Under the pieces are notes generated by a model. The model ran no database searches. It was not told the origin of the DNA and saw only the letters and a program-made list of their open reading frames with translations. Below are positions 1-18,366 of a DNA stretch of 39,724 nucleotides, in pieces. The DNA is from an uncultured archaeon (GTDB taxonomy: Archaea; Asgardarchaeota; Thorarchaeia; Thorarchaeales; Thorarchaeaceae). Each line of letters opens with the position of its first letter. Positions within the stretch are counted from its first letter, which is position 1. A program made the translations under genes and the position numbers. Where the stretch lies: the NCBI GenBank assembly GCA_964631415.1, contig CAZVZC010000016.1, positions 1 to 39,724 of the forward strand. The letters are read 5' to 3'.

Positions 1-96
1 GAGAAGGAGTTGGCAGACAAAGACAAGGAGGGCAAGTTGCCGCCGCTCTATGACGGCCACAAGACAGAGCTGTACTCTAGGGGTGAGTTCCTGTGA
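1..96 (+). CDS. 3' end of a gene truncated by the window edge (...EKELADKDKEGKLPPLYDGHKTELYSRGEFL*); possibly the Fe-S partner of AOR
   Basis: Frame 1 is open to TGA 94-96, which overlaps the GTG start of aor (GTGA coupling). The product is a guess from context. Confidence 0.55.
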   Translation, partial: EKELADKDKEGKLPPLYDGHKTELYSRGEFL

Positions 97-1949
97 TCAC
101 AGGAGTTGGCGGTCAGGCGCTATACATAGATCTTACAAGCGAGAGAATCAAGAAGAAACCCCTCGATGAACAAGTCGTCAGGAAGTACCTCTTGGGTGCA
201 GGGTTCCTGTCAAGGACTCTCTTCGATATGATCCCTGATGGGACGGACCCTCTTGGCCCAGAAAACGTTCTCGGCTTTGCTACCGGGCTCCTCACAGGTT
301 CCATGTTTCCGCAGTCGTCAAGACATGTTATTGCGGCATTGTCCCCTCTCACTGGGATATGGGGAGAAAGCCACGCCGCGGGATTCTGGGGGCCGGAACT
401 CAAGCTCGCTGGATACGACTCAATCATATTCACCGGCGCCGCTCGGAAGCCCGTCTACCTCCAGATTCAGGACTCGACCGTGGAACTCCTCGACGCATCA
501 TCTGTCTGGGGTCATGACGTCTTTGAAACCGATACGATGCTCAAAGCCAAACATGGGAGGAACTGCCGGGTCCTCTCCATTGGGCAGGCCGGAGAGAATC
601 TAGTTCGTTTTGCCGCCGTGATGAATGACAGGGACAGGGCATCTGCCCGTTCTGGCATTGGTGCAGTGATGGGGTCCAAGAATCTCAAAGCGATATGCGT
701 GAAGGGAACAGGCAAGCTCGAAGTCGCAGAGCCACGCACTTACCTGAAGCAGATGGACGAGCTCCACAGGAGAATGCTAGCCAATCCCTTCACTCCGGGC
801 CGAGCTGAGTTTGGGACCACTAGCCTGATAGAACTCATGCAGCACATAGGCCGACTGCCGACCTACAACATGCGGCAAGGGGTGTTCGACGGCTATGACA
901 AGATAGGCGGACATGCCGTCAACCAAGGTCATCTCATAAAACCCAGGGCGGATTGGAGCTGCTTGCAGAGATGCGGCCGCTTCACTTGTGTGTCAGACGG
1001 GCCGTACGCCTACACAGGGGGGTCTCCCGAGTTCGAGAGTCAGGCTGCCCTCGGTTCGCGTTGCGGAAATGACAATCTGGAGTCAGTCCTATACAGCCAT
1101 CACTTGGCCAATCGTTATGGAATGGACACGATATCTCTCGGTGGTACGATATCCTGGGCAATGGAGGCCTGGGAGGAAGGTCTCCTCACAGAAGAGGACA
1201 CCGGTGGAATCGATCTCGGCTGGGGCAACCATGAGTCAATCGTTAAGCTGACCAAGATGATTGCCTTCAGAGAGGGGTTTGGTGACCTGCTTGCAGAGGG
1301 GAGTGCTAGAGCAGCAGAGAAGATTGGACGAGGAAGCGAGAGGTTCGTCATGGCTGTGAAGAAGCAGGAGATAGCTGGACAGGAACCTCGTGCTCAGAAG
1401 TCGATGGGGCTCGCCGCGGTCACTGCCGCTAGAGGTGCCGACCATCTCTACGGTTTTCCTGTATTAGATGAGGTGGGGTTTGATGATGAGATCAGAAAAC
1501 GCTTCGGAGAGCAGTACCTTCCTCAGATGGCGGATAGACTCGACCCCACATACAAGGGCATCATGGTGAAAGAGTGTGAGGACTTCATGGTGGTGGTTGA
1601 GAGCGTGGGCCTCTGTAAGTACGGCACACAGATTCCTCCCGAGTTCTACTATGCAGATGTCGCACTTGGACTGAAGATACACAATGGCCTCGATATCTCT
1701 GTGGAGCAGTTGAAGACGATTGGAGAGCGAATAGTGAACCTCAATCGCTTGTTCAATGCAAGGTTCGGGATTACGCGAAAGGACGACACGCTGCCAGAGA
1801 GACTGACAAAGGAGAAGGCACCAGTCGGTCCCTCAAAGGGTCAAGTGGTCGAGCTGGACAGAATGCTCGACGAGTACTACAGCTCTAGGGGCTGGAATCT
1901 AAAGACAGGCTTGCCGCTCAAGAGCACACTGAAGAGACTCGCACTCTAG
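93..1949 (+). CDS. aor: Tungsten-dependent aldehyde:ferredoxin oxidoreductase family protein
   Basis: Motifs DPLGPENVL, SPLTG, IGQAGENLVRFA, GAVMGSKNLKA, GMDTIS, RGADH, DDTLPERL and MLDEYY..RGW. Confidence 0.93.
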   Translation: MITGVGGQALYIDLTSERIKKKPLDEQVVRKYLLGAGFLSRTLFDMIPDGTDPLGPENVLGFATGLLTGSMFPQSSRHVIAALSPLTGIWGESHAAGFWGPELKLAGYDSIIFTGAARKPVYLQIQDSTVELLDASSVWGHDVFETDTMLKAKHGRNCRVLSIGQAGENLVRFAAVMNDRDRASARSGIGAVMGSKNLKAICVKGTGKLEVAEPRTYLKQMDELHRRMLANPFTPGRAEFGTTSLIELMQHIGRLPTYNMRQGVFDGYDKIGGHAVNQGHLIKPRADWSCLQRCGRFTCVSDGPYAYTGGSPEFESQAALGSRCGNDNLESVLYSHHLANRYGMDTISLGGTISWAMEAWEEGLLTEEDTGGIDLGWGNHESIVKLTKMIAFREGFGDLLAEGSARAAEKIGRGSERFVMAVKKQEIAGQEPRAQKSMGLAAVTAARGADHLYGFPVLDEVGFDDEIRKRFGEQYLPQMADRLDPTYKGIMVKECEDFMVVVESVGLCKYGTQIPPEFYYADVALGLKIHNGLDISVEQLKTIGERIVNLNRLFNARFGITRKDDTLPERLTKEKAPVGPSKGQVVELDRMLDEYYSSRGWNLKTGLPLKSTLKRLAL

Positions 1950-2452: not shown

Positions 2453-2944
2453 ATGCCCACGGGGGTCTCGAATGGTTTGACAGCGGCAGGTCAGAAATCG
2501 ACCAGCAGTCAGAAACCAAAGACAAGGGTAGAGGACAAATTCGAGCCCCGAATTCTGGCCTTCTGCTGCAACTGGTGTTCCTATGCAGGTGCAGACCTTG
2601 CAGGCACCAGCCGAATGCAGATGCCTCCGAATATGCGAATCATCAGGGTCAACTGCACCGGACGCATAGACCCCGTCTTTGTTCTTGATGCACTCAACCA
2701 AGGTGCAGACGGCGTGCTCATCTCAGGCTGTCATCCAGGGGACTGCCACTATACAACCGGGAATCTGAAGATGAAGTCACGCTTCGCCCTTCTCCAGAAG
2801 ATGCTTGAGGAGGCAGGCATCGAACCAGAGAGAGTCCATCTTCAGTGGGCGAGCGCAGCAGAAGGCGATGTCTTCACGCAAGGTGTTACATCGATGGTGG
2901 AGCGAATCAAAGCTCTGGGGCCGAATCCCGTAAGGAAGGACTAA
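2453..2944 (+). CDS. mvhD: Methyl-viologen-reducing hydrogenase delta subunit, [2Fe-2S], all-Cys form
   Basis: FCCNWCSYAGADLAG, RVNCTGR, GADGVLISGCHPGDCHY, WASAAEG. The exact start is uncertain. Confidence 0.93.
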   Translation: MPTGVSNGLTAAGQKSTSSQKPKTRVEDKFEPRILAFCCNWCSYAGADLAGTSRMQMPPNMRIIRVNCTGRIDPVFVLDALNQGADGVLISGCHPGDCHYTTGNLKMKSRFALLQKMLEEAGIEPERVHLQWASAAEGDVFTQGVTSMVERIKALGPNPVRKD

Positions 2945-2950
2945 TGAAAG

Positions 2951-3865
2951 ATGACCAAACGCATTGCGCTGGCCCAACTGACCTCATGCTGGGGCTGTGA
3001 TCAGTCACTAGTCGATCTGCATCTTGGACTGTTGAGTGTACTGCCCGAGGTAGAGATAGTCTTTTGGCCTGCAGTAGTCGACTTCAAGTTCAAGGACCTT
3101 GAGTCAATGCCTGACCAGTCGATCCACATTGGGCTTGTGGAGGGAAGCTGCAGGACCGAGGAGGACGTTCACCTACTCAAAGTCATGAGAGAGAAGAGCA
3201 AGACCCTTGTCGCGTGGGGGGTATGTTCATGCTATGGAGGCATTCAGGGTCTCGCGAACCAGTGGAACCTCGAGGAGCTGGTCGACAGGAAGTTCATGAA
3301 GGCGGACACAGTCACCGACCCACGAGTACCCTCTGAGAACGTTCCGGCTTTCATGGAAGCCATACAGCCGAACACTGACATCGTGGAGTTCGATGTCATG
3401 TTGCCCGGGTGTCCTCCAACCAGCAAGAACCTGTTCGATGCTCTCACTGCTCTCATCTCAGGAAAGCCCTTTGACCTTCCTGAGAAGAGCGTGTGTGATC
3501 AGTGTAGTAAGGTGAAACAGGACAAGCACATCAAGGAGTTCCACAGGACTCATGAAGGACACATCGACCCCAGCAAATGCCTCCTCGATCAAGGGTATCT
3601 CTGTCTAGGCTTCGCAACAATAGGGCTCTGTGGGGCTATCTGTCCGAATGTGAACACACCATGTAAGGGATGCTTTGGACCTGTCGTCAGGGTCCGTGAC
3701 CATGGTGCCAAGATCATCTCAGCTCTGGGGGCCATTGCTGAGATGGAGCCTGAGAAACTGAAACAGTCATTCCCAGATCCGATTGGATCGTTCTACTTCA
3801 CGGACTATGCGGCCTCGTACCTCTCGAGGATCCGGACGGAAACGCGGAGGAAGAAGAAGAGATGA
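2951..3865 (+). CDS. vhuG: F420-non-reducing [NiFe(Se)] hydrogenase small subunit
   Basis: SCWGC, VEGS, GVCSCYGG, PGCPP, VCDQC, CLLDQGYLCLG, CPNVNTPCKGCFG. Confidence 0.92.
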   Translation: MTKRIALAQLTSCWGCDQSLVDLHLGLLSVLPEVEIVFWPAVVDFKFKDLESMPDQSIHIGLVEGSCRTEEDVHLLKVMREKSKTLVAWGVCSCYGGIQGLANQWNLEELVDRKFMKADTVTDPRVPSENVPAFMEAIQPNTDIVEFDVMLPGCPPTSKNLFDALTALISGKPFDLPEKSVCDQCSKVKQDKHIKEFHRTHEGHIDPSKCLLDQGYLCLGFATIGLCGAICPNVNTPCKGCFGPVVRVRDHGAKIISALGAIAEMEPEKLKQSFPDPIGSFYFTDYAASYLSRIRTETRRKKKR

Positions 3866-5175
3866 CGGGCGAGAAGACTGTCAAGATATCGCCTGTGACC
3901 AGACTTGAGGGTCATGGTGACATCACCATTAAACTGGGCAAGGACGGAAAGGTGAAAGAGGCCCAGTTCAACATCACGTCCACCCGGTTCTTCGAGAAGT
4001 TCCTTGAGGGGAGGTTTGCAGAGGAAGCACCAAGGTTTGCACCAAGGATATGCGGCATCTGTCCTGAGCCCCATCACTTGGCCTCCGTGAAGGCCGTGGA
4101 GGAGGCGTGGGGCATCACTCCACCTCCTGCGGCTGTGAAAGTGAGAAGGCTTCTGATCAATGCCAAGCAGCTCAGCAGTCATGCACTTCACTTCTTTGCT
4201 CTTGCGGCTCCGGACTTCTTGGTCGGGCCATTTGCAGAGCCTGCAAAGAGAAATCTGGTCACTATAGCCAAGGCCATGCCGGATGTTGGCAAGATGGCCC
4301 TCCAGATGATGCAGTTTGGCCAGGAACTGGCTGCAGCAATTGGTGGAACTGCCATTCATCCTGTGACGGCCATCCCCGGTGGCATGTTGAATCCATTCTC
4401 AGAGGAGAACCGGGACAAGTTCCTGAAACAGATAGGGGACATCAAGCAGTGGACCGCTGACACACTCACATTGGCCAAGAAGATCTTCGAGGACTACTGG
4501 GATGCCATTACCAAGCTCGGAGTAGTCCAGACGTACTATATCGGGACTCACAACAAAGGGGCTCACGAGATATATGATGGCAGTATCAGAGTGATGGACC
4601 CCGATGGCAGCGTTGTGGCCGACATCAAGCCGAAGGACTATCGCAAGTGCTTCGCAGAGTATGTGCCTGAACACTCCTATGCCACGCATGTGTACTACAA
4701 GCCAGTGGGATACCCAGATGGGGTCTGGCGGGCTGGCACTCTTGCGCGCATCAATGTAGTGGACAAGATGGCCACTCCTCTCGCCCAAGAGGCGTTCGAA
4801 GAGATGAGAAACAGACTCGGCCATCCCATCCATGCGACATTCGCATATCATTGGGCCCGGATCGTGGAACTTGTCCAAGCAATGGAAGAAATGGAGCTCC
4901 TGCTGAAGGACCCCCAAATAGTGAGCAAGGACGTCAAGTTGTCAGAGGTCCTGCCGAAGAAGGGCGATGGTGTAGGATGTGTTGAGGCGCCCAGAGGAAC
5001 ACTCATCCATCACTACTGGACCGACGAACAAGGAATCATCACGAAGGCAAACATGATAGTCGCCACAAACAACAATGTCGGCGGCATTGAGAAGACTCTG
5101 ATGGAAGTAGCCAAGCAGGTCTTTGAGCAGAAGACACACCAGAAACTGAAACTGCCCAAACCCATGATAGGCTAG
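3862..5175 (+). CDS. vhuA: [NiFeSe] hydrogenase large subunit lacking the C-terminal metal-binding motif (split VhuA type)
   Basis: TRLEGHG, RICGIC and EAPRGTLIHHY are present. The protein ends KLPKPMIG with no DPCxxC. Confidence 0.93.
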   Translation: MTGEKTVKISPVTRLEGHGDITIKLGKDGKVKEAQFNITSTRFFEKFLEGRFAEEAPRFAPRICGICPEPHHLASVKAVEEAWGITPPPAAVKVRRLLINAKQLSSHALHFFALAAPDFLVGPFAEPAKRNLVTIAKAMPDVGKMALQMMQFGQELAAAIGGTAIHPVTAIPGGMLNPFSEENRDKFLKQIGDIKQWTADTLTLAKKIFEDYWDAITKLGVVQTYYIGTHNKGAHEIYDGSIRVMDPDGSVVADIKPKDYRKCFAEYVPEHSYATHVYYKPVGYPDGVWRAGTLARINVVDKMATPLAQEAFEEMRNRLGHPIHATFAYHWARIVELVQAMEEMELLLKDPQIVSKDVKLSEVLPKKGDGVGCVEAPRGTLIHHYWTDEQGIITKANMIVATNNNVGGIEKTLMEVAKQVFEQKTHQKLKLPKPMIG

Positions 5176-5187
5176 GAGAAAATCAAG

Positions 5188-5340
5188 ATGACGGACGAGA
5201 TACCTGAAGGCGTACTGAACCTCCTTGAGATGGTAGTACGCTGCTATGACTGCTGACTATCGTGCGCCGCTCACATCGTCATAGTGGACGACGAGGGGCG
5301 CGAGATAGCAAGGAGAGAGCTCGTGACTGGCAGTGAATGA
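5188..5340 (+). CDS. vhuU: Selenoprotein VhuU, 50 aa: MTDEIPEGVLNLLEMVVRCYDCULSCAAHIVIVDDEGREIARRELVTGSE
   Basis: AGGAG precedes ATG 5188. In-frame TGA 5254-5256 lies in RxYDx-U-xSCxxH, the motif missing from VhuA. The frame stays open to TGA 5338-5340. Absent from the ORF track. Confidence 0.93.
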
Positions 5341-5374
5341 TGGCATAGTCACAAACCTCTGGACTAAGCCTGAC
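5337..5374 (+). promoter_or_regulatory. Eukaryote-type SECIS element of vhuU
   Basis: AUGAU core, stem GGC(A)UAGUC/GACUA(A)GCC, loop ACAAACCUCUG and 3' core UGAC, about 80 nt downstream of the Sec codon. Confidence 0.82.
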
Positions 5375-5430
5375 AGCCCTCGCAATGGGCTCGCCGGTCG
5401 AAGCTCTCACCACTAGCTCTATTGTCCAAT

Positions 5431-8334
5431 CTACTCAAGGAAGAGAGATACCCTACCAGGAAGAGCAAAACGCGCCTTGTTCTGTGGGTCATTCTGCGGC
5501 TTTTCAGCAGATTGAATCACTATCTCTAGGCCAAGTTCCGACTTCAAGTACTCGACTGAACTCTGCAGCGTTAGGATCTCGTCCTTGGCGCTTGCGGAGT
5601 AGCCCCAGAGCCCATTCTCTTTTGCCATTCGGTCCACTAACATCTTGACCTCTTTGCCATACTGCTTGAAGATGGGGTTTGACATCAAGTGTTTCATGAC
5701 ATCGCCGACAATCATTGGCAGCTTGGCGTTTCGGACGCTATCCATGGCATCAAACATCCATTGAGGCGCTACATAGATGTTGACTCTCTTTGGAGTCTTC
5801 TCCTTCAGAAGCTTCGAAATCTCGCGCACGTCACGTATCGTCGCTTCGACCACCTCCTGCGCTCGTTCTGCCGGCAAATCAATCATCTTCTTGTCCGCCT
5901 TGGGCCATGGCGCAAGAGAAACATACCCTTCATGCTTCATCTTCGACCACAGCTCTTCGCAGATGTGGGGAGCTATAGGGGTAACTAGACGGACCCAGAT
6001 GTCGCATGCGTATGCCATGGCGGCCTCACGCTCTTCCTTCGGCACCTCGGGGCGGTCCACGTACTGACTCACAATACGTTGCATCTCTGATGTCACAAGC
6101 AATGCATAATCCCTGAGCTTGAAGCTGTCAAAGCTCTCTGTACTGTCTTCTACCAGCGAGTTAACCTTGGACAGAAACCACCGGGTCATCATGGCAGGCC
6201 TGTCCTTCTTGGTGTACGCCTTCGGAGTCTTTGTCGCGTACTGCTTGACTGTTTCAATGAACTGAGCAACCCTGTTCTTGACTACAGGTACGTCCCTCTC
6301 GCGCCAGTCCATGAGAGTGCCCGGCTCAGCGGCCGAAATGACATAGGTACGATACACGTCAGCACCATACTTCTTCGGAATCTCCACAAGCGGGATGACA
6401 TTGCCCTTGCTCTTTGACATCTTCATCCCCTCCATGTTCACGTGCTCGTTCAAGCTGATGCATCTCAGCCAGTGCTTTCGCGGAAATATCGCGACATGGT
6501 GAAAGATGGCGAAGCTCAGGTGGTTCGATATGTGTGATGGCGCCGTATGTCGCTGGTCGTTCGGATACCAGTAGAGGAATTCATCGTGCATTGACTTCAG
6601 GAGATCAGTGCTCACACCCGTGTCTTCTGAGACCTTCTTCAGGTCACCCTTGCTCAGGAAAACGTAGTCAAAGAAACTCAATGTCAGCTGCTCTGGCTTC
6701 AGCTTGTTCCCTGTTATCTTATGGGCTATGGTGTAGAACGCCATGTAGATCGTGGAGTCTGACAGTGATTCGATGATCCACTCCTCATCGAAGGGAAGCC
6801 GGGTGCCGATTCCTCGCTTTCTCGCGCAGGGCCTCTGGGTCAGCCAGTCAAAGGTGGCCTCGAAGAGGTTCCTGAAGGTGTTTGGCACAATCTGCATTGA
6901 GTCTAATGCGCTACGTGCCAGATCCTTCCAGCCCGGACTCATGTAGTCCAAGAACCACTGGCCGGCGAAGACACCGACTTGGACATCTGTTCCGCATTTG
7001 CAGACGACAGGCCTCTTATCGGGTTCGTAGAAGACATCAACGCGATTGTTTGACCTCATCCAGTTTACGACATCGTCTTTGACTTCCTTGATTGCCCTGC
7101 CAGAGAACTGACCGCAGTTGTTTCTCATCACACCCTCGTAGAATTCGGCCTTGTAGATCTCTTGGGTGGCCTCCTCCAGCTTCTGAGCCTCTGCCTGTGA
7201 CTTGATACCTCTCTCTTCGACGGTATCTTTGGCTGGAAACTCACTGTATCCCTTGATGTCAATCATGCCGATGATCTTGATACTCCGAACGTCCTCAGGC
7301 GAAATCCCGTATCGCTCTAGGCCTGAGGGATCCTCCCAAAGGTCACGGAGTGCAACATAGTCGAAAGGCGCGTGGCCGGGAACGGAGTAGACCACACCAG
7401 TGGCATTCTGTGGGTCCACAAAGTCAGCTGGCAGGATTGGAATCTCATGCTCGTCATGCACCGCCCGGAACTTCTTGCCAACTATTCTGGCCCCGGGAAA
7501 CGACTCAATCACTTCTACCTTCTTGGCTTGCAGTCTCAGCTTCTCGACTGCTGCGGATGAGATGACCCACTTCTCGCCGTTGACTCGGGCCCACACGTAG
7601 GTTGCATGAGGGTTGATCCACATGTTTGTGACACCAAATATGGTTTCAGGCCGGAGGGTCGCAGGCACTATGAATCCATCTTCGAACCCGAACTTGATCG
7701 CCGTGAACTCCTTGATCTTGGCATCCTCACCCTTCAGCAGGTCGTCCTCTCCGACTGGATTGCCATCGTGAGGGCAGTATAGTAGTGGATAGGAACCTTG
7801 TCGGATGTATCCCTTGTCCATGAACTTGTGATACTGCCATGTCACGAACTTGTTGTAGATCTTATCACCAGTCGTGAACTTCCTACGCCAGTCAATACTG
7901 TAACCAAGGGCCTTGAAGTCGGCAGAGATGGCATCCGCAAAGAACTTGGCCGTCACCCAAGGGTCAGTGAACTTCCGCAGCTGCTCCTCGACTTCCTCCT
8001 CTGTCTTCAGATAGAGTCTCAGGTCTCGCTTATATTGTTCAATCGCATCATGGTCGCCTGCTTTGATCCTCTCCACCATTCCTAGGATTGGTGTGCCGGT
8101 CATATGAGAGGCCATTGGGAACAGTACATTGTATCCCCTCATCCGCTTGTAACGGGCTATCAAATCCCCCACAGTGTATGTCCTGCCATGACCGATGTGC
8201 AAAGCACCATTTGTGTACGGATATGGTACAGTAAGGAAGAACTTGGGCTTGTCGGGGTCGGGGTCCGCTTCGAAGATCTTGTCCCTTTCCCAGCGCTTTT
8301 GCCATTTCCTTTCGATCTCGGCGTATTCACTCAT
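5431..8334 (-). CDS. leuS: Leucine--tRNA ligase (archaeal/eukaryotic type)
   Basis: PYPYTNGALHIGH, ATLRPET, GTGVV-like ATGVVYSVPGHAPFDY, IESLSDSTIYMAFYT, KMSKSKGN. Start moved to MSEYAEIERKW. Confidence 0.97.
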   Translation of the reverse strand: MSEYAEIERKWQKRWERDKIFEADPDPDKPKFFLTVPYPYTNGALHIGHGRTYTVGDLIARYKRMRGYNVLFPMASHMTGTPILGMVERIKAGDHDAIEQYKRDLRLYLKTEEEVEEQLRKFTDPWVTAKFFADAISADFKALGYSIDWRRKFTTGDKIYNKFVTWQYHKFMDKGYIRQGSYPLLYCPHDGNPVGEDDLLKGEDAKIKEFTAIKFGFEDGFIVPATLRPETIFGVTNMWINPHATYVWARVNGEKWVISSAAVEKLRLQAKKVEVIESFPGARIVGKKFRAVHDEHEIPILPADFVDPQNATGVVYSVPGHAPFDYVALRDLWEDPSGLERYGISPEDVRSIKIIGMIDIKGYSEFPAKDTVEERGIKSQAEAQKLEEATQEIYKAEFYEGVMRNNCGQFSGRAIKEVKDDVVNWMRSNNRVDVFYEPDKRPVVCKCGTDVQVGVFAGQWFLDYMSPGWKDLARSALDSMQIVPNTFRNLFEATFDWLTQRPCARKRGIGTRLPFDEEWIIESLSDSTIYMAFYTIAHKITGNKLKPEQLTLSFFDYVFLSKGDLKKVSEDTGVSTDLLKSMHDEFLYWYPNDQRHTAPSHISNHLSFAIFHHVAIFPRKHWLRCISLNEHVNMEGMKMSKSKGNVIPLVEIPKKYGADVYRTYVISAAEPGTLMDWRERDVPVVKNRVAQFIETVKQYATKTPKAYTKKDRPAMMTRWFLSKVNSLVEDSTESFDSFKLRDYALLVTSEMQRIVSQYVDRPEVPKEEREAAMAYACDIWVRLVTPIAPHICEELWSKMKHEGYVSLAPWPKADKKMIDLPAERAQEVVEATIRDVREISKLLKEKTPKRVNIYVAPQWMFDAMDSVRNAKLPMIVGDVMKHLMSNPIFKQYGKEVKMLVDRMAKENGLWGYSASAKDEILTLQSSVEYLKSELGLEIVIQSAEKPQNDPQNKARFALPGRVSLFLE

Positions 8335-13035: not shown

Positions 13036-13980
13036 ATGGCGAAACCAGTCCGGGCTATGGCTGAAAGACGACAAGGCATCGGTGTGTGTTCCATTTGCGG
13101 TAGTAGCGAGTTCTACGAAGACACAACCCGAGGTGAGAACATCTGCACTGCTTGTGGGTGCGTGATCAATGACCGCATGATGGACACTGGTCCAGAGTGG
13201 AGGGCTTTCACAGCAGAGGAGAGAAACGCTAGGGCGAGAACTGGCTCACCCATGACACTGACAATGGCAGACAAGGGCCTTGCCACCACTATTGGCTGGA
13301 GCGACAGGGACGCGAATGGTCGCTCGATTGCTGCAAACAATCGTGCCGCAATCTACAGAATGCGCAAGTGGCAGATCAGGACTCTTGTGCACAGCTCTCA
13401 GCACAGGAACCTCAGCATCGCCATGAGTGAGATGGACAGGCTGACTTCACAGCTGGGCATTCCTAGTGAAACGAAGGAAACAGCTGCTCTCATCTACAGG
13501 AAAGCACTGAGCAGGCGCTTGGTCCGAGGAAGAAGCATAGAGGGAATGGTCGCGGCTTCGATCTACCTGTCCTGCCGTATTCACAAGATACCAAGGCAGC
13601 TTGATGAGATAGTCACCGAGGCCAGAGTGAACAGAAAAGAACTCGGCCAGTGCGTTCGACTCATCCTGCGCAATGTCGACATCAGAGTCCCAATACCGTC
13701 GGCAAATGACCTGATGCCACGCATCTCGGCAGACCTGTCGCTGGATGGAAGAACCCTGCAGTGTGCGATGGACATCATCAACAAGGCCAGACAGCATGGT
13801 CTGACAGCCGGCAAGGACCCAGGTGGTCTTGCGGCAGCTGCGCTGTACATAGCGGGTATCATAGAGGACGATAGACGCACGCAGAGAGAGATTGCGGAGG
13901 CGTCAAACGTGACTGAAGTCACTGTCAGAAACCGCTACAAGGATCTTGCGCAGTCACTCCAGATCACCATCAGACCATAG
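13036..13980 (+). CDS. tfb: Transcription initiation factor IIB, paralog 1
   Basis: Zn ribbon CSIC..CTAC, B-reader DTGPEWRAF, two cyclin repeats, TEVTVRNRYK. Confidence 0.97.
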   Translation: MAKPVRAMAERRQGIGVCSICGSSEFYEDTTRGENICTACGCVINDRMMDTGPEWRAFTAEERNARARTGSPMTLTMADKGLATTIGWSDRDANGRSIAANNRAAIYRMRKWQIRTLVHSSQHRNLSIAMSEMDRLTSQLGIPSETKETAALIYRKALSRRLVRGRSIEGMVAASIYLSCRIHKIPRQLDEIVTEARVNRKELGQCVRLILRNVDIRVPIPSANDLMPRISADLSLDGRTLQCAMDIINKARQHGLTAGKDPGGLAAAALYIAGIIEDDRRTQREIAEASNVTEVTVRNRYKDLAQSLQITIRP

Positions 13981-14057
13981 ACGGCGTGGGACGCGCTGTC
14001 GTTAGGCCCAGCCTCAGCAAGACATTTCTGTTCCAGCTTCAGAGTGAATCATGTTCC

Positions 14058-14822
14058 ATGAACAAGTTCCTCCTAGCCCTTTGTGGGCTCCCTGCTTCGG
14101 GAAAGACAACTCTTGCCAGGGCAGTGCAGACCAAGCTTGGTCCTCGTGCAAAGGTGCAGATAGTGAGTACGGATGAGTGGCGGGACCAACTCTACTATTC
14201 GGAGTTCTCACCTGAAAAGGAGCACGACGTGAGAGAAGCGGCGCTAAAACGTGTCACCGAAACGCTTGCACAAGGGTTCTCGGTGATTCATGATGACACG
14301 AACTACTACGCCAGCATGCGCCACGAACTTCTGGAAGCGGCCAGGACACAAGAATACGCCTTTGCGGTCGCATTCGTGTCCACACCATTGGAAACGTGCC
14401 TCCGGTGGAATCGGGAAAGAAAAGCAGCAGTACCAGAGCATGTGATAGTCAGAATCGGCAGCAATTTCGACAGACCTGGTGACAGATACGCGTGGGACAC
14501 ACCCATCGCGGCAGTGGACTTGTCCAAGGTGCACATCGACGACGCGGCGATGCAGGTCATTCAAAAGCTCAGGGCGCTAAGTCCACCCATTGAGCAGCGT
14601 TCACAGCCGATTGAAACAGATGACAGTGCCATCGATCTTGCCACAAGGGAGGCGGTTTCTCAATTCCTAGGCAAGTTCAGGTCCTACAGATCAGATCCTA
14701 GAGTGCACCAGATACGGAAGAGAGTGCTGTCAGAGTCAGTTGCGGCAGGCGAGTCGCCAGAGCAGGCCAGAAAGCGTCTGACAGCTGAGCTTGAGGAACT
14801 GATAGGCAGTAACTCGAGATGA
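14058..14822 (+). CDS. pstK: O-phosphoseryl-tRNA(Sec) kinase (PSTK/KTI12 family)
   Basis: LCGLPASGKTT, DDTNYYASMR, RWNRER and YAWDTP. Adjacent to tRNA-Sec. Start moved to MNKFLL. Confidence 0.9.
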   Translation: MNKFLLALCGLPASGKTTLARAVQTKLGPRAKVQIVSTDEWRDQLYYSEFSPEKEHDVREAALKRVTETLAQGFSVIHDDTNYYASMRHELLEAARTQEYAFAVAFVSTPLETCLRWNRERKAAVPEHVIVRIGSNFDRPGDRYAWDTPIAAVDLSKVHIDDAAMQVIQKLRALSPPIEQRSQPIETDDSAIDLATREAVSQFLGKFRSYRSDPRVHQIRKRVLSESVAAGESPEQARKRLTAELEELIGSNSR

Positions 14823-14845
14823 TGCAAGACTGGTATCTGCAGCCA

Positions 14846-14936
14846 TGGCGGCCTCCCAAGAGAATCGAACTCTCATCGCTTGCACGATCATGGGTTTGAA
14901 GCCCATGGAACCAGACCACCGGTCCTTTGGGAGGCC
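14846..14936 (-). tRNA. selC: tRNA-Sec (anticodon UCA), 91 nt, CCA encoded
   Basis: 9-bp acceptor stem GGCCUCCCA/UGGGAGGCC, G discriminator plus CCA, 7-bp D stem with 4-nt loop, 6-bp anticodon stem CAUGGG/CCCAUG with loop CUUCAAA, variable arm with GCAA loop, 4-bp T stem AGAG/CUCU with UUCGAUU loop. Confidence 0.97.
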
Positions 14937-14990
14937 CTATCTGGATAGACTGCTTGAAAACAAGGCCATAAACGTGTGGTTCGGACAGTC

Positions 14991-15641
14991 CTACAGATAG
15001 CGAGTGATGACTGCGTGAGTCTCTTTCTTCCATTCGACTGTCTTCTTTGCCAACTCGGTCGCAATCTCTGCTGGCAGAGGCTTGTCTCTTGGTAACGACT
15101 CGATCTTTGATAACCACGCGTTTGTGGTCAGAGCTATGGGATGAACTTCCTCCCCCTCAGTGGCCTTTATGATCATCTCTCGTCCGAGGGATATGTCGAA
15201 ATAGATCGCACTCAGCTGGGTCTTACTCAGAATCTCAAGGACAGTCCTGTCCCAACAGGTCTTTGCCACTAGGGCTCTTCCAAGCTTACTCTTGTCCTTC
15301 TCCTTAAGACCCTGATACTTATGTAATGAGGACTCTAGCTGCTTGACAAGTCCGTCCATGTAGCTTTTCATTGCAGTTTCGCTCCCCCCGAAGACAGCCA
15401 GCTCAACTGATTTCTGTGCCTCTTCAACCCACACACGCACTGTGACCTTGCTATCGCCAATCTTGGTCGTGAACATAGCCTTGCCCTTGAATATATGACT
15501 CTCTGCCTCGCTGTATTCAGTGAGCAGAGTCCCAGGCGGTGAGGCCACTACGTACCAAGCCATTCTGAAGACGACAGCCGACTCTGAGATGTCATAGCTC
15601 AGGGTGTGGGACACCTTGGGCTGCTTGTCGATCGCTTCCAT
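14991..15641 (-). CDS. Hypothetical protein inside the Sec gene cluster
   Basis: 216-aa ORF with SD GGAGG, 24 nt downstream of sepSecS and co-oriented with it. No family recognised. Confidence 0.8.
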   Translation of the reverse strand: MEAIDKQPKVSHTLSYDISESAVVFRMAWYVVASPPGTLLTEYSEAESHIFKGKAMFTTKIGDSKVTVRVWVEEAQKSVELAVFGGSETAMKSYMDGLVKQLESSLHKYQGLKEKDKSKLGRALVAKTCWDRTVLEILSKTQLSAIYFDISLGREMIIKATEGEEVHPIALTTNAWLSKIESLPRDKPLPAEIATELAKKTVEWKKETHAVITRYL

Positions 15642-15665
15642 GGACGCGTCCTCCCTTCAAAACTC

Positions 15666-16982
15666 TCATGATAGGCTGTCTAGTGCCCTATTGAGCTTAG
15701 TGGTGGCCTCCTCCACGTCTTTCCTACTCGTGCCAATCGCGGCATTCATCACTAGATAGCTGTGAGGATAGCCGTCAATCGAAGAACCGTATTCGCCCTT
15801 CCTGATGGCTCTCGGACCAGTCACCCTTAGACTGTATAGCCTTGACCCGACCTCCGTAGCATCGAGTCCGTCCAGAGTAATCGCGCATGACACTGGGTTT
15901 CTTACAGAGAGTACTCTCTGACCTATGCCTTCCGCAACCGATTTCAGTCTGTCCTCCAGAAGGGCACGATTCTCTGCCTGTTCCTTTCTGAGCTGGCTGT
16001 ATCCATCATGCCCGATGACAAGAAGTGCAGCGAGGGTCTGAACAAGAGGAGCGGCGGTCGCTCGGCCCGCATAAGTTTCCGCAGTCCATTCCACCACCTT
16101 GTCGTCTGGTGAAACGATGATTGAGCCGCCGACCGGACACAGGAAGTTCTTGTCACTGCTCTGGACGACAGCATCCACACGACCTGCATCGACTGCCGAC
16201 CGTATGGACCTCAAGACCTCTTCGGACTGCACTCCATAGGCGTTGTTAACCACAAGTGGCAGGTCTTTCTCAGCACAAATCTTGGCTACGTCCTTAACTG
16301 GATCTGACTCTCGAGGAGGAAAGAACGTCGTCGTCAGCAGGACTGCAGAGCCTCTGTGTTTCGACACGAGCCGCTCCAGCCCGCCCATATCAACCCGTAC
16401 TGCATCTCCCTCGAGTATTGTGGGCACAACTACCTCCGTGAGCCCGGCAAATGCTATGGCTCGATGAGGAGAAGTATGATCGACGCGAGGAAAGAGGACC
16501 TCCCGGCAGCCAATCTCTCTCCTCATTCCTGCCAATACAAGTGCGATACTCATCCCGGTCGACAACGGCGTGACGAGGCCATGATGTATGTTTTCCAGTC
16601 CGAGCTTCCGGACTGCATCGACTGCAACACTGTCAACGAGTTCCTGCATTAGTGAGGAACCGACAGCTTTTGGCTGAGTGGCGGTGATGTGACCACTGCG
16701 TCCAATCCCATGGTTGAAGCCAGATGACAGACGAGAGATTAGAGGAGAGGCAGTCCGTCCCTCCCGTTCACCAACCCTTGAGCCCTCAGGGTCCTTGTCA
16801 GAGTCCATTGAGGACAGCAGTTGAAGCAAAAGATCAACCTGTAGATCAGAGAGAGGTTTCACCGGGAACATCCTTCTGTTCAGCACGTCCTTCACTGGTG
16901 CCAACAGGGCGTCAATTGTCACTCGGCCTCGCTCAGCTAAGTTCTCAGGTATCAGATCGGTAAGCTTGCGCTCAATGTCCAA
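15666..16982 (-). CDS. spcS: O-phosphoseryl-tRNA(Sec) selenium transferase (SepSecS)
   Basis: VGEREGR, HGIGRSG, QPKAVGS, NNAYG, QSSDKNF (PLP lysine) and YAGRA. Confidence 0.96.
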   Translation of the reverse strand: MDIERKLTDLIPENLAERGRVTIDALLAPVKDVLNRRMFPVKPLSDLQVDLLLQLLSSMDSDKDPEGSRVGEREGRTASPLISRLSSGFNHGIGRSGHITATQPKAVGSSLMQELVDSVAVDAVRKLGLENIHHGLVTPLSTGMSIALVLAGMRREIGCREVLFPRVDHTSPHRAIAFAGLTEVVVPTILEGDAVRVDMGGLERLVSKHRGSAVLLTTTFFPPRESDPVKDVAKICAEKDLPLVVNNAYGVQSEEVLRSIRSAVDAGRVDAVVQSSDKNFLCPVGGSIIVSPDDKVVEWTAETYAGRATAAPLVQTLAALLVIGHDGYSQLRKEQAENRALLEDRLKSVAEGIGQRVLSVRNPVSCAITLDGLDATEVGSRLYSLRVTGPRAIRKGEYGSSIDGYPHSYLVMNAAIGTSRKDVEEATTKLNRALDSLS

Positions 16983-18366
16983 ACTTGTACTCCTCCTCGA
17001 CTGTCGTTTCGTACATCACCATGTCCCCCACCCTCACAGGCCCGTCAAATTGAGCAGACAAGACTCCTCGTGTTCCAAACGGTTGAGCGAGAAGCCCCTC
17101 TCGTCCAGTGTTTGTCCTAACAGAAGAACCGACTAGGGTTTCAGCAGTCTCCTTCCTCGACGCAAGCCCTTCAACAAGTACGTCAGCAGGCCTGACTCGG
17201 GAAACCCTTCCGGAACGAACGTGTTTCTTGGCAAGAATCATCTTGTTGGGAATGTCCACAATCTCTCCTGAACCAATGATGCGCATTTGAGTCGGAGGCA
17301 AGTCTGTCCGCATTAGTAGAACACGCATACCAGTTTCTGCCACCACCTCTCGTTGAAGCAACACTGCCGTATGACTCATCGGGCCTTCAACACTGTCCTC
17401 AACAACTCGAGTAATGCCTTCGGTCCTAAACGGCACCAACTCGGCTGTCACACTCGGCATTCCGATTGTTGCACTTACGACCATTCCCTTCGTGAGTCGC
17501 CCGCGGTACAGCGGGTTGGGTCTAATCTGTAGGATTGCCCCGGTGGCAGTCCTTACAGAGCCCGGCTTGCACAGATAGTCCCCTCGGCTCATAGTTGCAG
17601 ATTCCAGGTCGGGAATGTTCAACCCCACCCGGTCACCTGCGCCTGCGTTCTCTCGCGGCTCGCCGAAGGTCTGGATGGACCGTATCTTTCCTATCTGCCC
17701 CTGAGGCATGAGTCCGAGTGAATCGCCAATCTCTGCGACTCCTCTGAGAACCGTTCCAGTGACGACGGTACCGTGACCCTTCACACTGAAGGCATGATCA
17801 ACGGGCATCAGGAAGGGAGCGTCCCTCATTCTTGGCTTTGGCGTCACTGTTGTCGCCATGACCTCTCGGAGCCTATCAATGCCATCTCCAGTCAGTGCCG
17901 AAACTCTCACGTACTCCACCTTGTTGAAAGAGAGGTCGGCTATGATGGATCTCATCTTGCTCTCAACAGATGTCTGTTGTTTCTCGTCGGCAAGGTCGAT
18001 CTTTGAGATGACGATGATGATGGTCTCAACACCCATGGACTGCAGTACAATTAGGTGCTCGCCGGTCTGTAATTTCGGACCTTCGTCCGCCGCAACAACG
18101 ACAAGAGCTGCGTCGATGATCCCCGCACCGGCGACGACACTACGTATGAGATCGGCATGACCAGGGGAGTCCACCAAGGTCACAAGATACTTGCCCAGCA
18201 CGAACATGGTGAACCCAAGGTCTATGGTTATCCCGCGCTCCTGGGACTGTGGATGCTTGTCAAGACCTGCGGTAGACACCTTCTGACTCAGGGCTCTTGC
18301 GAGCTGAGTCTTGCCGTGATCGATGTGCCCCATGAGGCCCACGTGAATCGGTACAAGGCGCTCCAT
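16972..18366 (-). CDS. selB: Selenocysteine-specific elongation factor (archaeal/eukaryal SelB/EFSec)
   Basis: GHIDHGKT, ERGITIDLGF, DSPGHADL, QTGEHL and DHAFSVKGHGTV. C-terminal domain IV (G..AQPFGTRG) instead of bacterial winged helices. Confidence 0.95.
   Translation of the reverse strand: MERLVPIHVGLMGHIDHGKTQLARALSQKVSTAGLDKHPQSQERGITIDLGFTMFVLGKYLVTLVDSPGHADLIRSVVAGAGIIDAALVVVAADEGPKLQTGEHLIVLQSMGVETIIIVISKIDLADEKQQTSVESKMRSIIADLSFNKVEYVRVSALTGDGIDRLREVMATTVTPKPRMRDAPFLMPVDHAFSVKGHGTVVTGTVLRGVAEIGDSLGLMPQGQIGKIRSIQTFGEPRENAGAGDRVGLNIPDLESATMSRGDYLCKPGSVRTATGAILQIRPNPLYRGRLTKGMVVSATIGMPSVTAELVPFRTEGITRVVEDSVEGPMSHTAVLLQREVVAETGMRVLLMRTDLPPTQMRIIGSGEIVDIPNKMILAKKHVRSGRVSRVRPADVLVEGLASRKETAETLVGSSVRTNTGREGLLAQPFGTRGVLSAQFDGPVRVGDMVMYETTVEEEYKFGH

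Follow-up and report, generated by a model that had tools for sequence, protein, structure and literature searches.

A short UGA-containing vhuU gene likely completes the split large subunit of a [NiFeSe] hydrogenase in a Thorarchaeial genome

Separate selenocysteine (Sec)-containing VhuU proteins have been described in the hydrogenases of Asgard archaea and methanococci. In Lokiarchaeota, both VhuU and its SECIS element are known, and the AUGA of this element doubles as the stop codon of Loki VhuU.1 (Mariotti et al., 2016; PMC4989117). For Asgard archaea including Thorarchaeia, a more recent survey describes VhuU with its SECIS, the frhA/vhuU variant of Thorarchaeia, and the [U/C]GG_C[C/U][A/G] type of lower stem in the Asgard eSECIS-like element (Huang, Xiao and Zhang, 2024; PMC11227280). 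VhuU is reported to be present in 68% of the Sec-using Asgard genomes, those of Thorarchaeia included (PMC4989117/PMC11227280). The operon of Methanococcus maripaludis has the order vhuDGAU (PMC11097638). The closest solved enzyme, 9sfi, has a large subunit chain of 418 aa (chain g) and a separate VhuU chain of 27 aa (chain M). In contrast, the fused MvhA proteins of Methanothermobacter (5odc) and of Chloroflexota/Nitrospirota are single polypeptides with the DPCxxCxxH motif and a Cys ligand that are produced without recoding.

The DNA analyzed here (hereafter, the window) is a stretch of 39,724 nucleotides that represents contig CAZVZC010000016.1 (assembly GCA_964631415.1) of an uncultured archaeon of the family Thorarchaeaceae, with a metagenome-assembled genome that is 85% complete. 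On the plus strand of the window, mvhD/vhuD (2453..2944) encodes the iron-sulfur delta subunit (Pfam FlpD, E 7e-56; NCBIfam VhuD, 152 bits at a cut-off of 215), vhuG (2951..3865) the hydrogenase small subunit (Pfam Oxidored_q6; NCBIfam VhuG as the best match, E 3e-78), and vhuA (3862..5175), whose start overlaps the vhuG stop, a large subunit that ends short of the C-terminal Ni-binding motif (NCBIfam VhuA as the best match, E 1e-146). The vhuA frame terminates in TAG, and RICGICPEPH, the N-terminal ligand motif of its product, is located at residue 62. The combination of a large subunit of the RxCGxCxxxH type, a small subunit and MvhD in one operon assigns the system to the Mvh/Vhu type (group 3c). 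Including vhuU, the gene order vhuD-G-A-U is the same as in Methanococcales (M. voltae, M. maripaludis; NF041785, NF041786), as is the UxxCxxH motif, although the Thorarchaeota host, unlike Methanococcales, is not a methanogen. The ORFs scanned near the operon include no hdr gene. An aldehyde:ferredoxin oxidoreductase gene is located 500 nt upstream of the operon, at positions 93-1949 (+).

We also looked upstream for a Sec-containing VhuD of the kind known from Lokiarchaeota and Methanococcus, but found none. Whereas VhuD of Methanococcales and Lokiarchaeota contains Sec, the frame at 2453-2944 encodes the Cys form (AFCCNWC) and lacks an in-frame TGA. None of the four MvhD-domain genes of the genome (contigs C16, C38, C40 and C14) contains an in-frame stop, and all four are therefore Cys forms. 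Two of these domains belong to long ORFs (C38 and C14; 1171 and 723 aa) that are possibly HdrA fusions.

Immediately downstream of vhuA, after a spacer of 12 nt (5176-5187), lies vhuU (5188..5340, plus strand). A Shine-Dalgarno-like AGGAGA, read from the sequence at 5174..5179, precedes the ATG by 8 nt. Only 22 codons precede the first stop under translation table 11, and the corresponding ORF list of the window includes no plus-strand ORF of at least 40 aa at 5188, in keeping with the idea that standard gene callers overlook this gene. When the TGA at 5254..5256 is translated as Sec, the same frame yields 50 residues and a stop, namely, an N-terminal part of 22 residues ending in RCYDC, Sec23, LSCAAH, and a tail of 21 residues (5275..5337), with the ligand motif U23-x-x-C26-x-x-H29. 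Thus, both the SD-led ORF of 50 codons located 12 nt past the vhuA stop and the sequence RCYDC-UGA-LSCAAH plus tail, as claimed in the preliminary description, are present in the DNA exactly as reported. A separate ORF of about 50 codons following vhuA, with a single Sec, is also the arrangement described for the Asgard and Loki VhuU.

The segment from Met1 to His29 (29 residues) is the predicted mature peptide, whereas residues 30-50 are predicted to be a tail that is removed by a maturation endopeptidase and that resembles the tail of the FrhA precursor (3zfs_A 373-403). By homology, the solved VhuU chain having 27 residues and the family model 45 positions, VhuU would be cleaved after His29 to give a mature peptide of about 29 residues. 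The genome encodes one HycI-family endopeptidase, outside the window (contig C5 of genome G000, 6969-7292).

VhuA matches chain 9sfi_g of the identically split solved enzyme (E 3.6e-130) and covers residues 5-417 of the fused MvhA (5odc_F, 473 aa), where the alignment stops; the C-terminal DPCxxCxxH motif is absent from VhuA, in agreement with the preliminary description. VhuU aligns with residues 426-451 of the same MvhA chain and with the FrhA precursor tail; E values for its matches to the C-termini of solved [NiFe] large subunits range from 8e-7 to 2e-5, and the match to the separate chain 9sfi_M has an E value of 3e-4, a similarity well beyond the level of chance. VhuA and VhuU match successive parts of one MvhA chain, share its large-subunit fold and its ligand positions, and jointly cover MvhA 5-451; one [NiFe] large subunit is therefore reconstituted by the two ORFs. 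In the alignments, the UGA coincides with the X, i.e. the Sec position, of 9sfi_M and on the first Cys of DPCxxCxxH in Mvh/Frh, which is the terminal Ni ligand of the fused relatives. These alignments support the earlier proposals that the UGA corresponds to Sec or Cys in relatives and that Sec serves as a Ni ligand, and the 9sfi chains, along with PMC4989117, bear out the existence of separate Sec-containing VhuU proteins in methanococcal and Lokiarchaeal hydrogenases.

The best match of the vhuU product among profile models is NCBIfam VhuU (E 5e-16), with a score of 58.2 bits, below the cut-off of 70 of NF041786, a model tuned to Methanococcales that was searched with a query in which C replaced U. 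All four Vhu models (VhuD, VhuG, VhuA and VhuU) rank first or close to first for their genes, but the matches fall under the respective equivalog cut-offs, and the genes accordingly are relatives of the methanococcal Vhu rather than members of these families by the NCBI thresholds. We therefore file this VhuU under the Asgard VhuU lineage and not as an NCBI equivalog. One difference between the two groups is found directly before the Sec: methanococcal VhuU has RAYDP-U, whereas in Asgard archaea Cys replaces Pro. This D-C-U signature (5251-5256 in the window) is present in 40 of 40 Asgard copies (L001-L005, L014-L043, L053-L057), most of which also contain the Cys of R-C-Y.

The Sec-decoding machinery is encoded in the same window, with the genes for tRNA-Sec, PSTK, SepSecS and SelB located 9-13 kb downstream of vhuU. 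PSTK, the seryl-tRNA(Sec) kinase (13986..14822, plus strand), matches TIGR03574 below its cut-off (E 2e-40) and Pfam KTI12; tRNA-Sec with the anticodon UCA (14846..14936, minus strand) is detected by Rfam RF01852 (63 bits at a gathering score of 47) and by ARAGORN; the Sec synthase SepSecS (15666..16982, minus strand) matches Pfam PF05889 (E 3e-114); and the Sec-specific elongation factor SelB/EFSec (16972..18366, minus strand) exceeds the TIGR00475 cut-off of 242 with 283 bits. Together with a TFB gene and an ORF of 216 aa, these genes form a compact cluster (13036-18366) in the order TFB-PSTK-tRNA(Sec)-216-aa ORF-SepSecS-SelB, which is kept across Thorarchaeial genera in 13 of the 15 loci examined. 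Elsewhere in the genome, a selD gene for selenophosphate synthetase (contig C11, 35254-36063, minus strand) contains one in-frame TGA and is a second selenoprotein gene of this genome. An ordinary TGA stop terminates mvhG, PSTK, SepSecS and SelB in the window, and therefore the genetic code is not reassigned genome-wide.

The protein of 216 aa (14991-15641, minus strand) is encoded between tRNA-Sec and SepSecS, has no Pfam match and is conserved in 25 of the 26 genomes of the family. It was considered as the missing SECIS-binding factor and is probably unrelated to Sec. Its gene adjoins TFB also in two loci (L065 of genome G370 and L072 of G350) in which PSTK, tRNA-Sec and SepSecS were not found at the TFB locus; the VhuU search gave no match in G370 and only a weak one in G350, a pattern that fits joint loss of the whole Sec trait. 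Furthermore, the protein is present in 19 of 19 genomes of family f14, in which VhuU matches are weak only. Given this persistence where Sec genes are missing, it is probably not Sec-specific.

A eukaryote-like SECIS element (lokiSECIS, type I) with a three-way junction is predicted on the plus strand at 5324..5400 (window MFE z -2.2). Its lower stem pairs 5324-5331, corresponding to vhuU codons 46-48, with 5393-5400; the core consists of AUGA (5337-5340), the UGA of which is the vhuU stop, and GA (5372-5373), with a U·U next to it; the upper stem (5342-5350 with 5362-5370) has 9 bp with one A·A mismatch and is capped by an apical loop of 11 nt (ACAAACCUCUG, 5351-5361); and a side hairpin (5375-5391) separates the core from the 3' strand of this lower stem. 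In a set of 33 sequences, pairing holds in 90.8% of the cells, compared with 30-45% for slid partners, and 14 of the 22 pairs, including all nine of the upper stem, show compensatory changes. The ATGA of the core is invariant in the 33 sequences, and vhuU ends in TGA in each of the 35 loci, since its stop belongs to the SECIS core. The element that starts near the stop codon is a conserved AUGA...GA kink-turn-type SECIS and the predicted recoding signal.

The element agrees with the definition of the type I eSECIS-like structure in PMC11227280: an (A)UGA ... [G/A]A core flanks the upper stem, and the stem and loop are within the limits given there (a stem of 7-15 bp that has no more than 2 mismatches, and a loop of 8-20 nt with unpaired A's). 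As in the published lokiSECIS and type I eSECIS elements, an AUGA...GA/AA core is combined with an upper stem of 9 bp and a loop of 11 nt that is A-rich at the start and ends in G; the loop of the window starts with ACAAA, whereas G[U/G]AAA is reported there for most Thorarchaeia. By contrast, the methanococcal SECIS is of the GAA_A type and lies in the 3' UTR. The side hairpin, of the ACCYCGCAAGGGU type, is conserved, and neither it nor the three-way junction was found in the available text of PMC4989117 or PMC11227280. In most of the Thorarchaeial relatives (L016-L043), a pyrimidine tract of the CTCCTTCCATCC type follows the SECIS about 60-75 nt past the vhuU stop; this tract, perhaps a terminator, is absent from the window.

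Two other ways of folding the region were rejected. When the fold was restricted to 5335-5440, the energy was insignificant (z -0.47), since this segment lacks the 5' strand of the lower stem, which is located in coding sequence; 5320-5404 gave the three-way junction instead. An RNAalifold alternative, in which the GGCGG loop pairs with a strand of the side hairpin, has 5 compensated cells versus 20 for the three-way junction and fits the sequence of the window poorly; it is retained merely as an alternative. Rfam yielded no SECIS match near vhuU at either gathering or permissive thresholds; the Asgard SECIS is matched by no Rfam model, and hence this null result is no evidence against a SECIS.

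VhuU is widespread in the phylum: the search produced a match in 325 of 400 Asgard genomes, and the best 150 of these 325 matches each carry exactly one TGA. The nearest contigs come from Thorarchaeota and Promethearchaeota bins, and all five have the stop, the SD box, the ATG and the small ORF, whose TGA occupies the same codon. All 35 Asgard loci that were fetched show the succession of stop, SD box, ATG and RC[YF]DC-TGA-LSC[AG]AH, with the vhuA stop, a GGAG-type box and the ATG at equivalent positions upstream of vhuU. From the Sec codon to the stop there are 27 codons in each of the 35 loci, with an invariant 80 nt between UGA and AUGA, and accordingly the length of the tail may be set by the spacing between UGA and SECIS as well as by protease recognition. 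Among 34 distinct vhuU copies, differences by codon position number 10556 at the third, 3715 at the first and 2056 at the second position, and the residues L24, S25, C26, A28, H29, V33 and G37 past the UGA are invariant, yet encoded by 2-4 synonymous codons. These data show that coding selection acts both before and after the UGA. Two outcomes had been named in the preliminary description as capable of overturning its reading, namely, lack of coding conservation past the TGA in relatives and TGC or TGT in place of the TGA; the former is contradicted by the 34 distinct copies and the latter by the TGA present in all 34, which come from independent assemblies.

Three other explanations of the locus were weighed. 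The one that survives best, although we consider it improbable, is that the UGA is read as Cys or another standard residue, through near-cognate decoding or through Cys-tRNA(Sec) at low selenium, so that the enzyme is effectively a [NiFe] hydrogenase. Indeed, Cys can stand for Sec at the ligand position in fused relatives, and eight fused bacterial MvhA relatives have DPC with TGC or TGT at the position of the UGA. Against such decoding, the complete Sec pathway, the Sec-containing selD and the conserved SECIS are all retained, and none of the 34 copies has switched TGA to TGC or TGT, which is one base change away, arguing that Sec itself is selected.

That the TGA is a true stop, with vhuU as the decayed C-terminal leftover of a large subunit that was formerly fused, and with a hydrogenase that is either inactive or served by another partner, appears exceedingly unlikely. 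The end of the table 11 frame after 22 codons and the lack of an Rfam SECIS match speak for such decay, whereas the 34 distinct copies conserve the 27 codons past the TGA and vary there synonymously, the split with one TGA recurs phylum-wide in the best 150 of 325 matches, a SECIS with compensatory changes follows at the 3' side of vhuU, and intact Sec machinery is encoded in the same window. Finally, a sequencing or assembly error that masks TGC or TGT in an ordinary Cys-type small ORF, conceivable for a sequence from a metagenome bin, has a negligible probability, given that assemblies made independently, for different genera and from different samples, share the identical TGA.

We consider it very likely that an mvhD-vhuG-vhuA-vhuU operon, with vhuU as its final gene, encodes a cytoplasmic [NiFeSe] hydrogenase of the Mvh/Vhu type (group 3c) in this member of the Thorarchaeota; the split enzyme completed by VhuU, which had been proposed in the preliminary description, is supported by the alignments, coding conservation, the SECIS and the Sec genes. 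Under the mechanism that we propose from these predictions, the SECIS, located 83 nt downstream, would direct SelB and Sec-tRNA(Sec) to decode UGA-23 as Sec, and the second UGA, the vhuU stop, would terminate translation, presumably because it is inside the SECIS core. The VhuU precursor of 50 residues would then dock on VhuA, and after insertion of Ni-Fe, a HycI-type endopeptidase would cut behind His29 and remove residues 30-50. The resulting peptide of about 29 residues would contribute Sec23 and Cys26, which would join Cys64 and Cys67 of VhuA in forming the complete active site.

In addition to the SECIS, the coding region itself contains a hairpin of 52 nt (5257..5308, plus strand; MFE z -3.2) that starts with the first base after the Sec codon. 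In 33 sequences, 92.5% of its cells are paired, versus 30-57% with slid partners. The hairpin is kept with compensatory changes in Thorarchaeia, and two pairs covary, one joining the third position of Cys26 with codon 38 and the other joining the second position of codon 27 with the third position of Gly37. It is far more stable than the peptide sequence demands: recodings of the same peptide with the codon usage of the window (n=300) have a mean of -13.4 kcal/mol compared with the observed -30.5, and none of the 300 is as stable. Both Promethearchaeota loci (L004, L005) lack the hairpin. We tentatively regard it as a candidate for a second, coding-region recoding signal of Thorarchaeial vhuU, a suggestion that we rate at somewhat less than even; such a signal could act like the eukaryotic Sec redefinition element or could fold the mRNA so as to bring the SECIS beside the UGA. 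Our literature search found no Sec redefinition element in archaea, and no coding hairpin after the UGA was found in the available text of PMC4989117 or PMC11227280, the former of which includes an RNAz scan of the Loki genes that reported no further structures (Mariotti et al., 2016).

The Thorarchaeal vhuU, its distribution and its SECIS are already known and published for Asgard archaea (PMC4989117, PMC11227280). With both the family and the insertion signal on record, the present result amounts to correct annotation and not to a discovery; a split [NiFeSe] Vhu accompanied by a eukaryote-like SECIS is well established for Asgard archaea, and nothing in this locus is new in kind. Should the third SECIS arm and the hairpin that follows the UGA be active in recoding, this would bear on the origin of the eukaryotic Sec system. 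Without the hidden gene of 50 codons, the hydrogenase would seem catalytically dead in the annotation, and, with the whole Sec-decoding toolkit in the window, this genome is to be annotated as that of a selenocysteine user.
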